From assembly GCA_041746575.1 (NCBI GenBank), contig JBGTGT010000012.1, positions 12,943 to 76,942 of the forward strand: 64,000 nt of DNA, read 5' to 3'. Made by a program: the position numbers. Shown piece after piece: positions 21,001 through 33,000 of this stretch (positions are counted from its first letter, which is position 1; every line of letters begins with the position of its first letter). This stretch comes from Microcystaceae cyanobacterium (GTDB taxonomy: Bacteria > Cyanobacteriota > Cyanobacteriia > Cyanobacteriales > Microcystaceae).

Positions 21001-24000
21001 GAGTGGACAAAAGATGAACAAGGGCGATTTATCCCCAATCCTGTGGCTGGAACTGAAAAAGTGATTCCAACCCAGTTAATTCTCTTGGCTATGGGCTTTT
21101 TGGGGCCAGAACAACCCCTCCTTGAAGCATTAAGTTTAGAAACCGATGCCCGCAGTAATATCAAGGCCACCGAAGGCAAGTATCTCACGGGTTTGCCCGG
21201 TGTCTTTGCAGCAGGAGATTGTCGTCGAGGTCAAAGTTTAGTCGTCTGGGCATTTAAAGAAGGTCGAGAGGCGGCCAGAGAATGCGATCGCTATTTGATG
21301 GGTAATACCGATTTGCCTTAACTAGCATGGTCATTAAGGTGTTAGGTGTTAGGTTTTGAATGATTCAATTTAAACCTCGTCCCTTACACCTTTTATTGAA
21401 TCAAATAACTTGACCACTGCGGTTCAGCTTGTATATCTTTGACTTCTCGTCGTAAAAGTCGCCATGTTTTCCCTTCTGCTTGGCGTTGCAAATAAATATC
21501 AAAGGGGTTTTGGCGTTGGGTAACTTCTTGATGGGGTAATTTCAGCTTCAGGCGATACGTTCCGGTTAGGTGATAGGCCGCTAAATCTTCAATAAAAACA
21601 GGTTCGTTTTGTTTGACCTGAATTTTACTAATTTCTAGAATGGGAACAGAGGTATTTAACTGTTGACTCAATCGTTCTTCGGTTTTAGATAATTGTAGAG
21701 CGATCGCTTTTTGGACAATTTCCCCATCTGGCGTCAATTCAGTGGGAGGGGTAGCCGTCTGGCAGGCTGTTAACCCTATCGTCAAAACTATCATTAAAAA
21801 GAACGGTATTAAACGATTGAATCTCAATTGACTGAGCACACAGGATTGATCAAAACAGGCAAAAGAAAAAGCGGATAAGTCAATTTTGACCTTCAGATTG
21901 AGGATGGACATAAATAGAACCGTTATTTAAGGAAAGTTAAAACTTCTGGTGATTTTATTACTTTTAATGTCAAAATTATTATATGGCATTGCGTTCCTTT
22001 TTCTCTCTCTTTTTTGGTCTTGTGTAAACTGTATGAATTATTAGCTTTTTCAAGGAAATTCTAAATATTATCGGATTTTAGATGCCCTTCAGAACTTAGC
22101 AGAAATGCCTTGGTTCGTTACTCGATATCGTGGGGAAGTATCCGTCGGAGATGGGGTCTTGGTGTGGTTTGCGGGGGCAGATGCTGGCATTTATGCCATT
22201 GCTGAGATCATTAAAGAACCACAGATTTTCGCTAAAATTCCTGATTTAAATTATTGGATAGATAGCCAAAACACAAAATAAGATAAACCTCGAGTCCAAC
22301 TCCGTTTTAGGCGTAAATTAATCGGTCAACCTTTACATCATAATGATCTAAAAAATGACCCTATTCTTCAAGGTTTAACGATGATACGCACCCCTAATAG
22401 TACCAATTTTAAAGTTACTTTAGAACAATGACAACGGGTTCAGCAATTAAAAGAATAAAGGTTGTCTATACTGACAAATTCACCCATTTAGTCTTTTAAA
22501 CCGTGCCTACTTGCTAAAAAGTGTTTACCTTGTTTTTCGCCATCTTCGATTAAACGATGAATATTAGTTGGACTGCGATCCAATTTACTTTCATAATTGA
22601 GACTTTCGGCTAATTCTTCTGACATTTTAATCAAGGGGATGTGGTAAGATTTATCAGGATCAGCAGCAAAAATTTTAGGGATTTTAATGGGTTCAAAAAT
22701 GGAAGTTTCTGTCAAAAAGTCTTCTTTAAATGCTCCTCTTAAAAAAAGATCGTTGAGAAATTCAATTTGTCCTAATCCTTGTAGTAAAGATACATTTCCT
22801 TCCAGTTCATTACGACGATCTGCAATATCATCGGGTTGAACTGGAATTTTTTTACAAGTTGTCGGATTTACTTTAATGACCCAAATTTCATGGGGAATAT
22901 TTTCAATTCCAACGTAATCCCGTTTAATCAACACATCAATAGGAGGATTATCAGAAAATAACCCATCCCAATAAGTCATTTCATCAATAGAAACCGCAGG
23001 AAAAATACTCGGAACACAAGCAGATGCTAAGAGGTGTTCAATCCGAATGGGTTCATGATAAGAGTCGAATTTGTGTAGTTTCCCACTCAAAATATTACAA
23101 GCTCCAATTAATAAAATCGGTGGTTCGGGCTGCGCTCCCCAATGATTTAATTCATCAAAATCAACATGGTGCTTTAGTAATACTTCAAGGTCTGTAAAAC
23201 GGCGACGCAATCCCAACGTTGCCAGTTCAAACCATGCCTTAGTTAAGGGAGAGGCAGGACTAAAATTAAACTGAGGAATTAATCCTTTACTGCCCCATTC
23301 GATAGTTTTAATTGCCGCATCGTTGAAGAACTTTTCTGCTACCGTTTGCGCCGTATTATCTTCCCAAAAATCAATGAGTCTCTGCCAAACGGAATTGTCT
23401 CCTTTTTTCAAAGCGTACCATATTAAAAAAGCGCAGATTGCCCCACCAGACGTACCACTTAAACTCACAATTTCAAATTGGTCTTGAATGTTGCTGTCAA
23501 ACAAGGACTTAAGTACACCCGCCGTAAATGCGGTTTGGCTTCCCCCTCCCTGACAAGCAATAGCAACTTTCGGTTTATTCATTCTTAAGCCTCCTTTGAC
23601 CTAAAAAAATAGCAAGAAATAATTTAATTTTAATTGAGTTTTGTAGATTGTTACTTATATTTTATAATAAAATTGGCATGACTAATTAAGAATTGATAGA
23701 TCAATAACAATGATAACATTAGCACAGATGAAAAAACGCTATCTGCAAGATTTTGCTTTTTGGATTAAAGAAACAATGAGATAGTCAAGTGAGGGGAATT
23801 TTACTCAAGTGGATTTTGGGAATTTAATTGAGAAAGTGGAATCGTTAGGAATAGTCAGCGCAAAGCAGTGGGGATTTATTTATTACACTAATAAAAAAAG
23901 AACTTTAGGGAAAATAATACTATTTTAAAAAAATAGTGTAGTATTATCGTTTTTTACCGGGGGGAATAAAGCGAATTTCTATTCTTCTTCTATTAGCATC

Positions 24001-30000: not shown

Positions 30001-33000
30001 TGATGACCCATCCTCCTGCTATTATTCCTAAGAAAATAATTAATAAAGGAATCCATAGCTGTTGCCATAAATATTCATTGATTAAACAGGTTTGTTTACC
30101 GCCCGGTGCAGGAGTACAAAATTCTTGAGCGGTAGGGGGAATATCAATTACTGAAAGCTGATAAGTGTTATTATTATTCGTAATAATTTTTTGCGATCGC
30201 TGATTTAAGGGTAATGCCCTAATCCAACTTTCTCGTTCTTTGGTTTCAGCAGAATTCTTTTGTCGAAAAGGACTATTAGCTGGTGTTTCGGTCCAAATAT
30301 CTGAAGAAATTCCGGCACTTATTAATAAAGGAGCATCGGTAATCCAAACAGCAGATTGAAATTTAATCGGTTTATTTTCTACTAACCGGCATTGATTCAG
30401 TTGCGCTAATCCTTGATAAACAAATAATTCAGTGCGTTGGATATCTGTATTCTGAATATTTGGATTAGATTCAGCAGGAATTACTGCAAGGATCCTATCA
30501 ATCTCTTCTTTATTTCCTTTAAAAAAAATGGGTTCAGGTAAAGAATGATTTTTAGACGAAAGAGACTTAATTTCTGAAGCAAAGAGAACCACATAAACCC
30601 GATCCTGAGATTGTAAACTATCTTGAACAATCTGGCGTAATCGAGTCCGGCCTTCATCATTAAAATTAACACTTCCTGTCAAGTCAATCGCTAGGGTAAC
30701 ATCTCGACCTTTATGTAAACGTGCGACTAAATCAAGTCCCGTTTTTTGCCAAACTTTAAGGGGTTCACCCAGTGTTACCGATAAACAATTATCAATTTTC
30801 ATTTTTTAACATAATACTTTTATGACTATTTAAGCCCAAGGATCAGGAACTTTAAAAGGATGATGAGGAAAAGATTGAGCTTCCTCTTCTGCAAAATCAA
30901 TAGTAATTGTTTCTTTACTGGGATCGAGTTCCCGTTTAAGCTTATTCCAATCCCCCGGATCGTTCAGTTCTTCATAGAAACCGTCCGGAGAAGCGATTGT
31001 TTCACCATAGGCAATGGTTTTTTCAAAGAACTTAACGCCCTCAGAGGATAAAGGCGGCGAAATAGGAGCAGGAGAAGTTACTTTTAATGGGGACAAGGAA
31101 GTCGGTGACGGGGCGATAGGATATATCTCCTGTTTCAATTGGTCAAATTCGCGGGTTAATTCTGTTAATAGTTCTTCAATCGCTGTCAATCGGCGGACGA
31201 GGTTCGGCTCTCCTCCAGTCGTTGGTTTCTCTAGCGAAGGGGCTACAGCAGTTAAGTCATGACCGAAAAGTCGTTCAATTTCATCGAGAGTGGTTTCTCC
31301 TGCATAAACAAACGTCAAAGCTTGATCGAGAAGCGATGACATACCTGCTTGAGTGGCTGAGGTTAACAGTTGTTCTGCCGTTGCCTTCTGACTAATAAGG
31401 GCTTTTAAAGAAGGGTCGACGTTAAAAACTTCATAAATTCCAACTTGTCCTTGATAACCTTGGCCGTTACAGGTACGACATAAACGACCTTTCACTTGTG
31501 CTTGTTCGATGGCCGTTGGATTTAAGACGTTTGCTTTGTATAGGGAAGTCGGAGAAGGGGAAAGTCCAAATTTAGCCTTTTGTGCCGCATCGGGTTCATG
31601 AATTAAGCGGCAAGTGGGACAAAGGCGACGGATGAGGCGTTGATTAATGATACCGCTCAGGGTGTCTCCTAAGAGCGAAGCTGTCATGCCTAAATCTGCC
31701 AAATGCGTCAGGGCATGAGGAATAGATGGTACATCCAAGCTGGTTAAGATATAACGACCTCGGGCGGCTGCATCGGTCAAATGATGGGCAATTTCTGCAT
31801 CTCCCAAACAGTCGACGAAAATGACATCTACATCTTGTCGAAGCAAAGATTGCAACATCTTGCCGTAGGTTCGCTCTTTCTGAGGATTAACTTGCACTTG
31901 CGTCACGTTTGGCAGGGTGCGTTCAATGGGATCTTCAAGGGATACTAAACTTAACCCTTGTTCACTTTTTTGAGACAGCAAGGTATAGAGTGTCGTCGTT
32001 TTGCCAGAATGGGCGGGGCCGATGATCAACACTAAGCCCGATGATCGTCTAATTAGCCTTTGAACTGCAGAATCTTCGAGGAAGGGGCGGATTTGGGGGA
32101 TGGTACGGCAGTCATCGATGATTTTAATGATTGCTTTTTCGCCTCGCTGACTGGGGAGAATATTGATTAATAAATTCACGGATCTTCCCGCAAAATTACG
32201 CTGAATTTGCCCTTTTTGTAAGTGCTGTCGTTGATTAATATCTATTTCTGCCATCAATTTGAGTCGAGAGAGGATGGCCGGTGCGACTTGGATCGGCAAG
32301 GGATCTAAGGACGGTTGCAACAATCCATCTTGCCGAAAACGAACACTGAGTAAGTTCTCTTGGGGATCGATGTGAATTTCTGAGGCTTTGCTCGTTAAAG
32401 CTTTTTCAAGGATCTTATTGACTAATTTGATAATCGGGGCTTCGGATGCCTGATCCAGTTGGCTGATATCTTCTTCCTCCATAGCGGCCAGAATAGGGGG
32501 CATTTGCTCAAAGATTTCTGTCACGTCTACAATCGTCGGACTGACCATCTCTGTGGCTTGAGAAGCACGGGGATAAATTTGTGACCAAAGCCGTTGATAA
32601 TCTTCGAGGGTAATACCAATACGCTGTAATTCGACCCCTTTCTGTTGAAGACGCTGTTTGAGGGGAGTGAGAAGATGGATTTGACTGGGATCGACCATCG
32701 CTATTCTCAAAATGGCGGGCTTTTGGTTGTTTAAACTTAACGGTAATAGTTGATGCACTCGGCAAAGTTCTGCCATTTCTAATGATTCGATGATTTTTGC
32801 GATTTTTTCGGGATGGATTTCCGTATGGCTTTTAAAATATTCGACGCCGTAGAGAATTTTCAGGCTAAAGAGATGTTGTTTTTTATGTTGATCGAGAACA
32901 GAGGAGGGCAAAGGATGACCCGTAATATTCGGTAAAATTTCCAGCAGGGAACGACCTGTTTTGCGGGATTCGATCAAGGCCTGTTGCATCTGGGGGATAG

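Follow-up and report, generated by a model that had tools for sequence, protein, structure and literature searches.

A stator-like protein pair in a cyanobacterial FtsZl1 operon and its possible place in an envelope machine

Four adjoining genes in the genome of a Microcystaceae cyanobacterium raise the question of whether an ion-driven stator pair and a tubulin-like GTPase can work as one machine. We analyzed these genes within a 64,000-nt stretch of contig JBGTGT010000012.1 (the window; coordinates count from its first nucleotide). The genome-wide survey's note had read them as a mobile, Zorya-like cassette and as the first functional link between a stator and a prokaryotic tubulin homologue.

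Operon layout and conservation

ORF calling placed four co-directional genes at window positions 23944-30802 on the minus strand, listed here from the first gene to the last:

29657..30802, minus strand: vWA, single TM, FHA-like protein, 381 aa (ORF, model, fold matches)
26381..29641, minus strand: FtsZl1 tubulin-like GTPase, 1086 aa (Pfam Tubulin_2, model, fold matches)
24589..26358, minus strand: MotA/ZorA-like channel subunit with helical tail, 589 aa (PADLOC, profile comparison)
23944..24585, minus strand: MotB/ZorB-like peptidoglycan anchor, 213 aa (PADLOC, profile comparison, OmpA-type motifs)

The intergenic gaps are 15, 22 and 3 nt. We assembled 80 cyanobacterial loci anew rather than relying on the survey's 18, and 63 of them carry all four genes in the same order, which confirms the four-gene unit. 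Conservation is high in all four proteins (the vWA-FHA protein and FtsZl1 average 57-58% column identity). Judging by hydrophobic helices, every cassette product except FtsZl1 is a membrane protein.

On the same strand, the gene of a PilB/GspE-like ATPase (T2SSE match, 1.1e-75) ends 27 nt upstream of the vWA gene, as would suit a cassette that assists type IV pili, secretion or motility machinery. This neighbor has a normal GC content (0.45-0.46), unlike the cassette, and occurs in none of the 80 related loci, so that an accessory role of this kind is very improbable and close to refuted. The patatin flank is likewise absent from these loci (0/80), in line with what the survey had noted for both flanks.

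Family assignment of the four proteins

Profiles, motifs and folds together back the family assignment of each protein. The key motifs are the following:

30671..30685, minus strand: MIDAS-like DxTxS motif (DLTGS, residues 40-44) of the vWA-FHA protein (translation and orthologue alignment)
29066..29095, minus strand: tubulin signature loop GSLCGGTGSG (residues 183-192) of FtsZl1 (translation and alignment)
25972..26025, minus strand: MotA/ExbB signature LPNLLLTFGLLGTFLGIT (residues 112-129) of the ZorA-like protein (translation and alignment to ZorA)
24505..24528, minus strand: TM start FTDLMSNA of the ZorB-like protein, with Asp22 as presumed proton carrier (translation and alignment)

The first protein has no match in Pfam, PADLOC or NCBIfam. 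Its reported vWA, TM and FHA architecture was recovered in an independent model (pLDDT 84.5) and by fold matches, for which Foldseek was also run on the model. Residues 27-215 adopt a vWA fold (CLCA1 VWA, Z 8.3, rmsd 3.3, 132 aligned), residues 249-267 form the single hydrophobic helix, and the C-terminal residues 275-381 adopt an FHA fold (Rad53, Z 11.3, rmsd 2.3, 98 residues aligned). D40, T42 and S44 of the DxTxS motif are invariant in 25 of 25 orthologues, as are T119/D120 and D156.

For FtsZl1, the Pfam Tubulin_2 match was reproduced (3.8e-98, residues 12-367). The model (pLDDT 75.1) resembles CetZ (Z 20.8; Foldseek, CetZ2, 1.3e-5) and tubulins (Z 18-19), and S184-G192, which includes the GTP loop GGTGSG, is invariant in all 27 orthologues. 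The PADLOC scan gave no match for this protein either and no ZorC/D/E/F/G was found here, in agreement with the survey.

The third protein matches PADLOC ZorA1 as reported (4e-18, residues 13-345), and its family profile matches ZorA 8qyd_A at 6.7e-14, a score that comes largely from the coiled-coil tail, which also matches talin and designed coiled coils; the TM core taken alone gives a weak i-E-value of 0.043. ZorA1 is matched by 35 of 44 family members and Pfam MotA_ExbB by 14 of 44, the window's own protein not among the latter. Three hydrophobic helices (12-30, 111-129, 162-180) make up a core with the signature LPNLL..GLLGTFLGIT. In the profile alignment, P113, T124 and S167 fall on ZorA Pro136, Thr147 and Ser184, the kink residue and ion-selectivity filter of that protein (PMC11946911). 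Among the 44 ZorA-like sequences, G120 never varies and at least 90% retain T124. The helical tail also aligns with that of ZorA (profile 192-503 to ZorA 244-539, 2.9e-6), and its length varies (proteins of 493-790 aa, n=75 sequences, CV 0.12 vs 0.02 for FtsZl1). A relative of this protein is encoded in 305 species-level genomes, and a distant family member adjoins a ZorB-like gene of the same family (hhalign 99.9%).

The fourth protein again reproduced its PADLOC ZorB1 match (7.6e-8). Its profile matches the MotB-related 8vvn_B (8.3e-5), MotB 6ysf (0.0076) and ZorB 8qyd_F (0.0086), and the FTDLMSNA segment aligns with FSDLMS of 8vvn_B. In all 25 ZorB-like sequences F20, T21, D22 and L23 are unchanged, as is the OmpA-type motif GHTD..GSN.DLGLMRA..RRRIEIR, so the TM Asp and the wall-binding motif described by the survey both hold. 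By their sequences, the last two genes encode a pair of the ZorAB/MotAB type that retains the residues on which ion flow depends.

Comparison with known systems

The operon itself was already known: Makarova and Koonin (2010, Biol Direct 5:33) catalogued it, with the same four genes, as an FtsZl1 operon of Anabaena, Cyanothece, Microcystis and Trichodesmium. Ava_1847-Ava_1850 of Anabaena variabilis encode a vWA protein, FtsZl1 (Ava_1848, of the same length class as ours), a membrane protein called 'B7' and a COG1360 protein, and genes, order and sizes agree (381/1085/524/215 vs 381/1086/589/213 aa here). Gene content is not materially different; only the reading differs. Additional file 5 of that study gives the operon with COG1360 'Flagellar motor protein', and its Deinococcus rows place FtsZl1 beside a 'MotA/TolQ/ExbB membrane protein' and OmpA genes. 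To speak of the first stator-tubulin link is therefore an overstatement, although the stator was never discussed there: the main text nowhere mentions MotA or MotB, describes the last gene as 'OmpA-like', ascribing beta-strand TM domains to it, and offers no characterisation of B7. What is new is the reading of this uncharacterised family as a putative ZorA-like tailed stator subunit, with the last gene as a MotB/ZorB-like anchor that carries a TM Asp.

With type I ZorAB of E. coli (PDB 8qyd; Hu et al., Nature 2024/25, PMC11946911) the pair shares a three-TM A-subunit, the Pro/Thr/Ser ion path, a long helical cytoplasmic tail, and a B-subunit in which a TM Asp is combined with a peptidoglycan-binding domain. 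The likeness is remote in sequence (21.9 bits vs the 500-bit NCBIfam ZorA cut-off), the tail is shorter (~375 residues), and in place of ZorC, ZorD or another effector the pair is accompanied by a tubulin-like GTPase and a vWA-FHA protein. A Zorya-specific cytoplasmic beta-sheet has been described (PMC12505986). The 5:2 motors MotAB, ExbBD and TolQR share the MotA/ExbB signature, the B-subunit Asp and the OmpA-type wall anchor. Unlike these systems, the pair here is not accompanied by a flagellar, TonB or Tol-Pal partner; the A-subunit of the window lacks the Pfam MotA_ExbB match, and the long tail replaces the torque-generating or compact cytoplasmic domain.

The Deinococcus FtsZl1 loci (DR_0540-DR_0534; Deide_2p00760-00810 on D. 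deserti plasmid 2) are similar: directly after FtsZl1 (1070 aa) come a MotA-like protein of 411 aa, which has a helical tail, and an OmpA/MotB-like protein that carries a TM Asp. The 411-aa D. deserti protein matches the MotA-core profile (hhalign 96.8%, E 2e-10); the OmpA protein matches Pfam at 2.8e-18, and its N-terminal AFSDLM aligns with aFTDLM. These loci differ in their upstream genes (418 and 108 aa), which have no detectable likeness to the vWA-FHA protein, and in a following LRV-repeat protein, to which D. radiodurans adds a Ser/Thr kinase.

A possible envelope machine

We tentatively prefer, with slightly less than even confidence, to read this FtsZl1 operon as a proton motor that is anchored in peptidoglycan and coupled to a tubulin-like GTPase tethered to the membrane. 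The data show the gene arrangement with its conservation, the families and the key residues; we infer the stoichiometry, rotation, all protein contacts, trigger and output of such a machine. The MotB/ZorB-like protein, presumably a dimer, would hold peptidoglycan by its OmpA-type domain and carry protons on Asp22 of its single TM helix. The MotA/ZorA-like protein would surround this anchor, presumably 5:2, and proton flow past Thr124/Ser167 would move it. Its cytoplasmic tail may reach FtsZl1, and the vWA-TM-FHA-like protein, spanning the membrane as an adaptor, would hold or regulate the GTPase there. The channel would open upon an envelope event, for example contact with the wall or damage such as that from phage attack, and the tail movement could trigger or position GTP-dependent FtsZl1 assembly, leading to membrane remodelling or to a block of the invader. 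Service in conflict or in remodelling would be two candidate outputs.

The FtsZl1-stator adjacency in a second phylum, Deinococcus, speaks for a single machine. Several observations count against it: the contradictory topology of the adaptor, the missing vWA-FHA relative in Deinococcus, a second, solo FtsZl1 paralogue without a stator in this same genome, a Meiothermus plasmid with vWA, tubulin and hypothetical genes but no stator genes, ZorAB-like pairs without FtsZl1 nearby at two loci (L026, L005), and the doubt of Makarova and Koonin (2010) that FtsZl1 builds canonical filaments, given an S6-T7 region that is not compatible. The same Deinococcus, Meiothermus and two-locus observations would fit two separate two-gene modules, vWA/FtsZl1 and stator, that share an operon and are not mechanically coupled. 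We consider this improbable, since 63 of 80 loci preserve both the order and the spacing of the genes, the adjacency recurs in Deinococcus, and the gene spacing of 3 nt to 22 nt suggests co-translation.

Distribution, inheritance and candidate functions

The distribution of the cassette is patchy: we found it in 59 of 394 genomes and 40 of 152 genera, and even within genera only some genomes are positive (2/5, 3/6, 1/19, 3/8). One copy has decayed (2 TAA stops). The cassette is AT-rich (GC 0.3235; remainder of the window, 0.408; genome, 0.403), which the survey had taken as island-like. However, at 57 of 58 loci the cassette exceeds its flanks in AT content, so that low GC is a family-wide trait and no sign of recent arrival. 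Nor did mobility hold up: FtsZl1 sequences branch along the lines of cyanobacterial taxonomy, a sign of long vertical residence; members of a clade share their flanks, which are mostly housekeeping genes; and the ZorA-like N-terminal domain had no match in a plasmid search. For FtsZl1 there was one weak phage match.

Such inheritance, which Makarova and Koonin (2010) themselves state for cyanobacteria, would suit a housekeeping or stress machine that remodels the membrane or envelope, in which the stator would provide proton-motive energy or a hold on the wall, much in the manner of TolQR in Tol-Pal. They proposed membrane remodelling for FtsZl1 operons. The housekeeping neighbors, the high conservation, the membrane location of every component but FtsZl1 and the OmpA/MotB-domain genes that adjoin FtsZl1 in several phyla (2010 table) agree with this function. 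It is nonetheless unlikely in our view: 335 of the 394 sampled cyanobacterial genomes have no cassette match, so the cassette is dispensable, and the long tail of ZorA type has so far been described in a defence motor.

That tail, together with the ion-path residues, the patchy presence and the decayed copy, argues for a dedicated anti-phage or conflict system of Zorya-like type, in which the ZorAB-like sensor would recruit or activate the GTPase and the vWA-FHA adaptor in place of ZorC/D. We hold this possible but doubtful. Type I Zorya, to which the cassette is likened by genes and sequences, is an anti-phage system. The lack of ZorC/D/E/F/G and of PADLOC matches in the first two proteins, the tree and the near absence of plasmid and phage matches stand against it. 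By analogy the cassette may serve defence, a role that cyanobacterial gene context does not back: housekeeping, metabolic or regulatory genes make up about two thirds of the 94 representatives scanned (from 188 flank clusters), and only seven of the 94 have plausible defence-type PADLOC matches (four Uma2-like, one MTase, two helicases).

Settings in other lineages are in keeping with a conflict role. Operons with tubulin, vWA and GTPase genes in Firmicutes and Actinobacteria have been read as conflict systems (Kaur, Burroughs, Iyer, Aravind, eLife 2020, PMC7159879), and NTP-dependent multimeric assembly was proposed as their mode of action. These GAP1-N2 systems share a coiled-coil-tailed tubulin and a membrane vWA with the cassette, but they centre on P-loop GTPases and FNIII-repeat proteins, none of which is present here, and neither MotA nor MotB occurs in that paper. 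The vWA-tubulin genes on the Meiothermus plasmid adjoin BrxL, DUF1156 and a Swt1-HEPN gene, and an Azospirillum tubulin-like gene adjoins two caspase genes.

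A tailed, ZorAB-like stator encoded with a tubulin-like GTPase

Four consecutive, co-directional open reading frames on the minus strand, separated by gaps of 15, 22 and 3 nt, form what we call the cassette (23944-30802). The genome-wide survey's note had described these four genes, and their open reading frames, family matches and order confirm that description.

Genes of the cassette and neighbouring features (window coordinates)
30830-33061, minus strand: PilB/GspE-like ATPase, 743 aa (T2SSE match, 1.1e-75), ending 27 nt before the vWA gene
29657-30802, minus strand: vWA-TM-FHA-like protein, 381 aa (open reading frame)
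26381-29641, minus strand: FtsZl1 tubulin-like GTPase, 1086 aa (open reading frame)
24589-26358, minus strand: MotA/ZorA-like channel subunit, 589 aa (open reading frame)
23944-24585, minus strand: MotB/ZorB-like anchor, 213 aa (open reading frame)
22488-23582, minus strand: patatin-like phospholipase (Pfam, 1.5e-17), 361 nt downstream of the cassette, GC 0.38
19503-19587, minus strand: tRNA-Ser(TGA), the sole tRNA in the window, 4.3 kb from the cassette

Neither the patatin-like nor the PilB/GspE-like neighbour occurs in any of the 80 related loci that we compared (0/80). The ATPase ends in a Pro-rich extension of about 145 residues, and a 38.5% identical paralogue at about 9009-10838 in the window adjoins a further PilT-like match. 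The phospholipase shows a weak, sub-threshold likeness to CBASS/defence lipases. No integrase was seen beside tRNA-Ser(TGA). The GC content is 0.30-0.36 over 22-31 kb versus about 0.41 elsewhere, and a promoter and terminator scan predicted fewer sites than in shuffled sequence and is thus uninformative.

The ZorA-like protein matches the PADLOC model ZorA1 (4e-18). Its three hydrophobic helices give way to a hydrophilic tail, with no hydrophobic segment past residue 180. An exhaustive search with residues 1-230 retrieved 357 clusters (E<=1e-3); in a 44-member alignment the motif PNLL..GLLGTFLGIT is prominent and G120 is invariant. ZorA1 was matched by 35 of the 44 members and Pfam MotA_ExbB by 14 (E<=0.01; best 1.5e-5). 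The cassette's own protein has no MotA_ExbB match at E<=0.01 and reaches 21.9 bits against NCBIfam antiphage_ZorA_4 (cut-off 500), below the curated ZorA score. Because single-sequence PDB searches with the ZorA-like and ZorB-like proteins found nothing relevant, profiles were needed for matches to solved structures. The ZorA-like family profile matched E. coli ZorA (8qyd_A, 6.7e-14) and two other MotA/TolQ/ExbB chains. In the ESM Atlas, the nearest clusters to the N-terminus include one ZorA-like/MotA_ExbB cluster at 0.92, which we treat as a lead only.

Counted along the profile alignment, P113, T124 and S167 align with ZorA Pro136, Thr147 and Ser184. These are the kink residue and the ion-selectivity filter next to ZorB Asp26, according to the available text on the Zorya structure (PMC11946911). 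T124 and S167 are each conserved in 90% or more of the 44 sequences, and P113 is invariant in 16. The cassette protein therefore has the ion-path residues of the MotA/ExbB-type transmembrane (TM) core of Zorya ZorA, but its core match is weak (i-E 0.043 for the TM-core stretch alone). The long helical C-terminal tail likewise appears to have its counterpart in ZorA: the two tails align at 2.9e-6, though unrelated coiled coils match the cassette tail as well.

Orthologues of the ZorA-like protein are 493-790 aa long; within Microcystis alone, relatives range from 507 to 932 aa. The cassette tail contains a repeat of about 76 residues at window 25150-25390 (residues ~312-412), SSALIFQAASEKIEQSKFSDNL / DSALVFLEASEKIEQSQFADNL, with EKIEQS at 324 and again at 400. 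A tandem-repeat finder run on the DNA returned nothing notable, and self-BLAST of the tail returned nothing. Repeat gain and loss may lie behind the variable tail length.

In the ZorB-like protein, the stretch FTDLMSN, with D22 at the start of the TM helix, is invariant in all 25 sequences, as are the OmpA-type motifs GHTD, GSN.DLGLMRA and RRRIEIR (25/25). These are the counterparts of TM Asp26 and the peptidoglycan-binding domain of Zorya ZorB. The family profile matched a MotB-related chain (8vvn_B, 8.3e-5), MotB (6ysf, 0.0076) and ZorB (8qyd_F, E 0.0086; ZorB-like residues 7-56 against 11-59). Between the TM helix and the OmpA domain lies a linker (window ~24390-24450) whose length differs among orthologues, from about 10 to about 70 residues, and whose longer forms resemble coiled coil; this length may set the reach to the wall.

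FtsZl1 and the vWA-TM-FHA-like protein

FtsZl1 matches Pfam Tubulin_2 at 3.8e-98, and its GGTGSG loop is invariant (27/27). In the structure model (pLDDT 75.1), a GTPase domain (1-372) is followed by long helices over about 380 residues (380-760; one of them, at 562-640, is 79 residues long), an alpha/beta part (768-1004), a disordered stretch (1005-1053) and a terminal helical hairpin. The model resembles CetZ (Z 20.8) and tubulins (Z 18-19). These alignments cover nearly whole chains (299-355 residues) and, by their first and last aligned residues, range from 8 to 840/855 of the model. It is thus possible that the tubulin C-terminal domain is completed by the alpha/beta piece at about 768-840, with some 400 residues of helices inserted ahead of it. 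In the available parts of their paper, Makarova and Koonin 2010 (PMC2875224) did not locate this domain in FtsZl1 and doubted that the protein polymerises. The ESM Atlas gave no usable match for the C-terminal third.

A second FtsZl1 paralogue is encoded in the same genome (C84:29864-33133, or L003:7864-11133; 1089 aa, with a C-terminal zinc ribbon). It is 24.5% identical to the cassette protein over 889 residues. Its neighbours are RecR, UvrB and GDP-mannose dehydratase genes, and neither vWA nor stator genes accompany it.

The vWA-TM-FHA-like protein has no match in Pfam, PADLOC or NCBIfam. In a structure model built from 25 orthologues (pLDDT 84.5), residues 27-215 resemble vWA domains (CLCA1, Z 8.3; Ku80, Z 8.1), and the MIDAS-type motif D40-x-T42-x-S44, with T119/D120 and D156, is invariant in the orthologue alignment. 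A single hydrophobic helix spans 249-267, just behind the invariant C229 and C239. Residues 275-381 resemble the FHA beta-sandwich in about 35 FHA structures (Z 8-11.3; best match Rad53, rmsd 2.3 over 98 aligned residues; Foldseek probability 1.0). Searched against PDB sequences, the family profile gave no relevant match and none to any solved FHA domain. Since no FHA match was found at the sequence level, the FHA call is one of predicted fold. The canonical FHA phosphate-binding pattern is G-R ... S-x-x-H. This family instead has G305 followed by E/D and a 'VRxYLxR' stretch, which suggests that the phosphate-binding site of the FHA-like domain is degenerate, with the canonical residues seemingly absent.

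The topology of this putative adaptor is contradictory. Lys+Arg counts are 3.28 after the TM helix versus 0.6 before it, with the same bias in all 25 sequences; by the positive-inside rule, the FHA-like domain is thus cytoplasmic and the vWA domain external. However, none of the 25 orthologues has a signal peptide, despite a vWA part of 245 residues. A complex prediction for the whole protein with FtsZl1 760-1086 scored 0.01 (mark 0.32), which speaks neither for nor against contact.

Relation to known systems

The operon is already known. Makarova and Koonin 2010 (PMC2875224) defined operons of FtsZl1 with vWA, OmpA, GTPase and kinase genes and proposed a role in membrane remodelling. In the portion of their additional file 5 available, Ava_1847-1850 are listed as vWA (381), FtsZl1 (1085), B7 (524; their family name at the ZorA-like position) and COG1360 'Flagellar motor protein' (215), and the same four-gene set is listed for Cyanothece, Microcystis and Trichodesmium. 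The cassette has this vWA-FtsZl1-B7-COG1360 order, and its order and sizes correspond to those of Ava_1847-1850, Cyan8802_4287-4290 and Tery_1709-1705. It also has the adjacent upstream vWA gene with an intact MIDAS-type motif, and its FtsZl1 fits the architecture they described as far as the available text gives it (N-terminal GTPase, extended coiled coil and mostly helical C-terminal part). For Deinococcus, the same file gives FtsZl1, a 'MotA/TolQ/ExbB membrane protein' and OmpA. Neither MotA nor MotB occurs in the available main text, which calls the OmpA-like proteins beta-barrel porins and B7 only 'membrane-associated'. Recognising a ZorA-like, tailed stator here is a modest but real addition.

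Beyond that 2010 supplement, our literature search found no link between a ZorAB-like stator and FtsZl1; subscription journals and bioRxiv supplements may differ. Tubulin and FtsZ go unmentioned in the available text of the Zorya structure (PMC11946911), of a study of MotAB evolution (PMC12505986) and of a meeting review (PMC12422006).

Two other systems differ from the cassette in their components. Zorya effectors (ZorC+ZorD, ZorE or ZorF+ZorG) had no PADLOC match in the vWA-FHA protein or FtsZl1, as the survey's note had already stated, or in either flanking gene. For Firmicutes and Actinobacteria, Kaur et al. 2020 (PMC7159879) interpreted operons with tubulin, vWA and GTPase genes as conflict systems, with no mention of MotA or MotB in the available text. 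Their GAP1-N2 systems, as described there, have a P-loop GTPase and an FNIII-repeat component beside the tubulin, and neither Pfam domain is found in the cassette or its two flanking genes.

Patchy distribution with a vertical signal

A scan with a 16-member ZorA-like alignment, one genome per species, found relatives of the ZorA-like protein in 305 genomes, and the best 80 loci are all cyanobacterial. For 63 of these 80, tblastn located all four genes in the same order. Of the 17 incomplete loci, ten end at contig edges (L008, L009, L011, L018, L022, L023, L042, L060, L071 and L073). The other seven have room and yet lack at least one gene (L005, L019, L026, L030, L033, L035 and L053). For instance, L026:10001-13683 (ZorA-like and ZorB-like genes) and L005:8130-9809 (ZorA-like gene) carry stator genes with no vWA or FtsZl1 gene in the 8-10 kb upstream. 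The only Tubulin_2 match elsewhere in the L026 genome scores 23.9 bits; in the L005 genome, FtsZl1 lies on another contig. A metagenome scan with a distant ZorA-like member found one locus, ending just upstream of the gene.

The ZorA-like gene is present in 59 of 394 good-quality cyanobacterial genomes sampled phylum-wide, from 40 of 152 genera. Its presence splits genera (2/5, 3/6, 1/19, 8/9 and 3/8), and one large family has none (0/33). One decayed copy (G378:C1:4514087-4514350) is an 85-codon N-terminal remnant with two TAA stops and nothing else kept.

We built a FastTree phylogeny of 65 FtsZl1 proteins longer than 1000 aa (7 shorter ones left out; FastTree support, midpoint root). All Nostocales-type families fall in one 39-row clade, the five Microcystis rows group together, and so do the Pleurocapsa/Xenococcus types. 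This agrees with the vertical pattern of cyanobacterial FtsZl1 stated in the available text of PMC2875224.

The flanks of 61 complete loci hold 328 ORFs in 188 clusters, several of them common to 7-13 loci at the same position. We scanned representatives of 94 of the 188 clusters, covering all 46 multi-member clusters and 48 nearest-neighbour singletons. Most are housekeeping genes (ABC transporters, sigma factor, PSII/phycobilisome, GUN4, MinCD, HemB, SecA and UvrA). By their Pfam domains, fourteen of the 94 look mobile- or defence-related (five Uma2, PIN, C5-methylase, two IS605 parts, integrase, Imm1, two helicases), 13 have no Pfam match, and seven of the 94 have a plausible defence-type PADLOC match. 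In 57 of 58 loci the cassette has a lower GC content than its flanks (means 0.359 vs 0.410), and its low GC is therefore a family trait. Plasmid sequences gave no match to the ZorA-like N-terminal domain; for FtsZl1 there were 15 matches on plasmids, all distant, and a single weak one in phage.

The survey's note had read the cassette as a mobile, Zorya-like anti-phage or membrane-remodelling machine. The conserved unit of ZorAB-like stator and FtsZl1 holds up. Mobility does not: the FtsZl1 tree follows taxonomy, the flanks are mostly housekeeping, and the ZorA-like N-terminus lacks plasmid matches. Nor does the island-like GC survive, given how consistently the family is AT-rich. Vertical descent in the FtsZl1 tree, the housekeeping flanks and strong sequence conservation all favour a housekeeping or stress role for the cassette, which we still regard as unlikely rather than likely.

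Relatives outside cyanobacteria

Plasmid 2 of Deinococcus deserti encodes FtsZl1 (1070 aa), then a 411-aa protein, then an OmpA protein. The 411-aa protein matches the MotA-core profile (hhalign 96.8%, E 2e-10; IPNLLMLAGLLGTVLGL) and has a helical tail, and the OmpA protein has AFSDLM at the start of its TM helix. By hhalign, the Deinococcus upstream genes, a 418-aa protein included, show no likeness to the vWA-FHA profile, and a Meiothermus vWA protein has no significant match to it.

Two further plasmid loci have other neighbours. On a Meiothermus taiwanensis plasmid (L085, 199-13395), genes for a vWA protein (555 aa), a tubulin-like protein (903 aa) and a hypothetical protein (679 aa), with no stator, lie between a Swt1-family HEPN gene plus an ATP-binding gene and a BrxL Lon-like protease gene, with DUF1156 upstream; this is a BREX-like defence neighbourhood. 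On an Azospirillum plasmid (L086, 3990-14861), a tubulin-like 1214-aa protein with a C-terminal GYF domain has two caspase-family, two OmpA-family, DUF4384 and PEGA genes as neighbours.

FtsZl1 neighbourhoods differ, and FtsZl1 therefore looks like a hub with varied partners, of which the stator looks like one, in at least two phyla. A stator-tubulin theme may be present in Cyanobacteria and Deinococcota. The conflict-type neighbours in Meiothermus and Azospirillum also bear on function. Together with the Zorya-type tail, the within-genus patchiness, the decayed copy and the conflict reading of sister operons in the available text of Kaur et al. 2020 (PMC7159879), they argue for a conflict role, which we consider possible, though short of probable.

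A possible mechanism

Our preferred reading takes the cassette as a single envelope machine; beyond the presence of the residues, each step of its mechanism is one that we infer. A wall-anchored, proton-conducting ZorAB-like unit would communicate through its tail with FtsZl1, and the vWA-TM-FHA-like protein would serve as a transmembrane adaptor. By analogy with Zorya, as described in the available text of PMC11946911, perturbation of the envelope would engage the peptidoglycan-binding domain and so lead to ion flow. As output, a GTPase polymer would assemble or relocate, in place of the nuclease that Zorya uses. In its most specific form, a ZorAB-type 5:2 rotary proton motor would govern, via the tail, how a tubulin-superfamily GTPase assembles at the membrane, joining a Zorya-like sensor to a polymer output; we put this forward as a speculative and, on balance, doubtful proposal. 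If true, it would be the first motor-to-cytoskeleton coupling of such kind in prokaryotes.

Within the tubulin superfamily, FtsZl1 has remained an orphan branch since 2010, and membrane remodelling and biological conflict are the rival guesses at its role. A ZorAB-like, wall-anchored putative proton motor in cyanobacterial and Deinococcus operons offers a concrete, testable mechanism, and would widen the range of 5:2 motor outputs beyond flagella, TonB, Tol-Pal, gliding and Zorya nucleases. The hosts include tractable and ecologically important cyanobacteria (Anabaena/Nostoc and Microcystis), and a role in defence or envelope repair, if true, would bear on bloom-phage ecology. The assignment also corrects a widespread misannotation of the ZorA-like protein: its orthologues carry source names such as 'methyl-accepting chemotaxis protein', 'SbcCD ATPase subunit', 'Smc' and 'Smc/SbcC', probably because of the coiled-coil tail.
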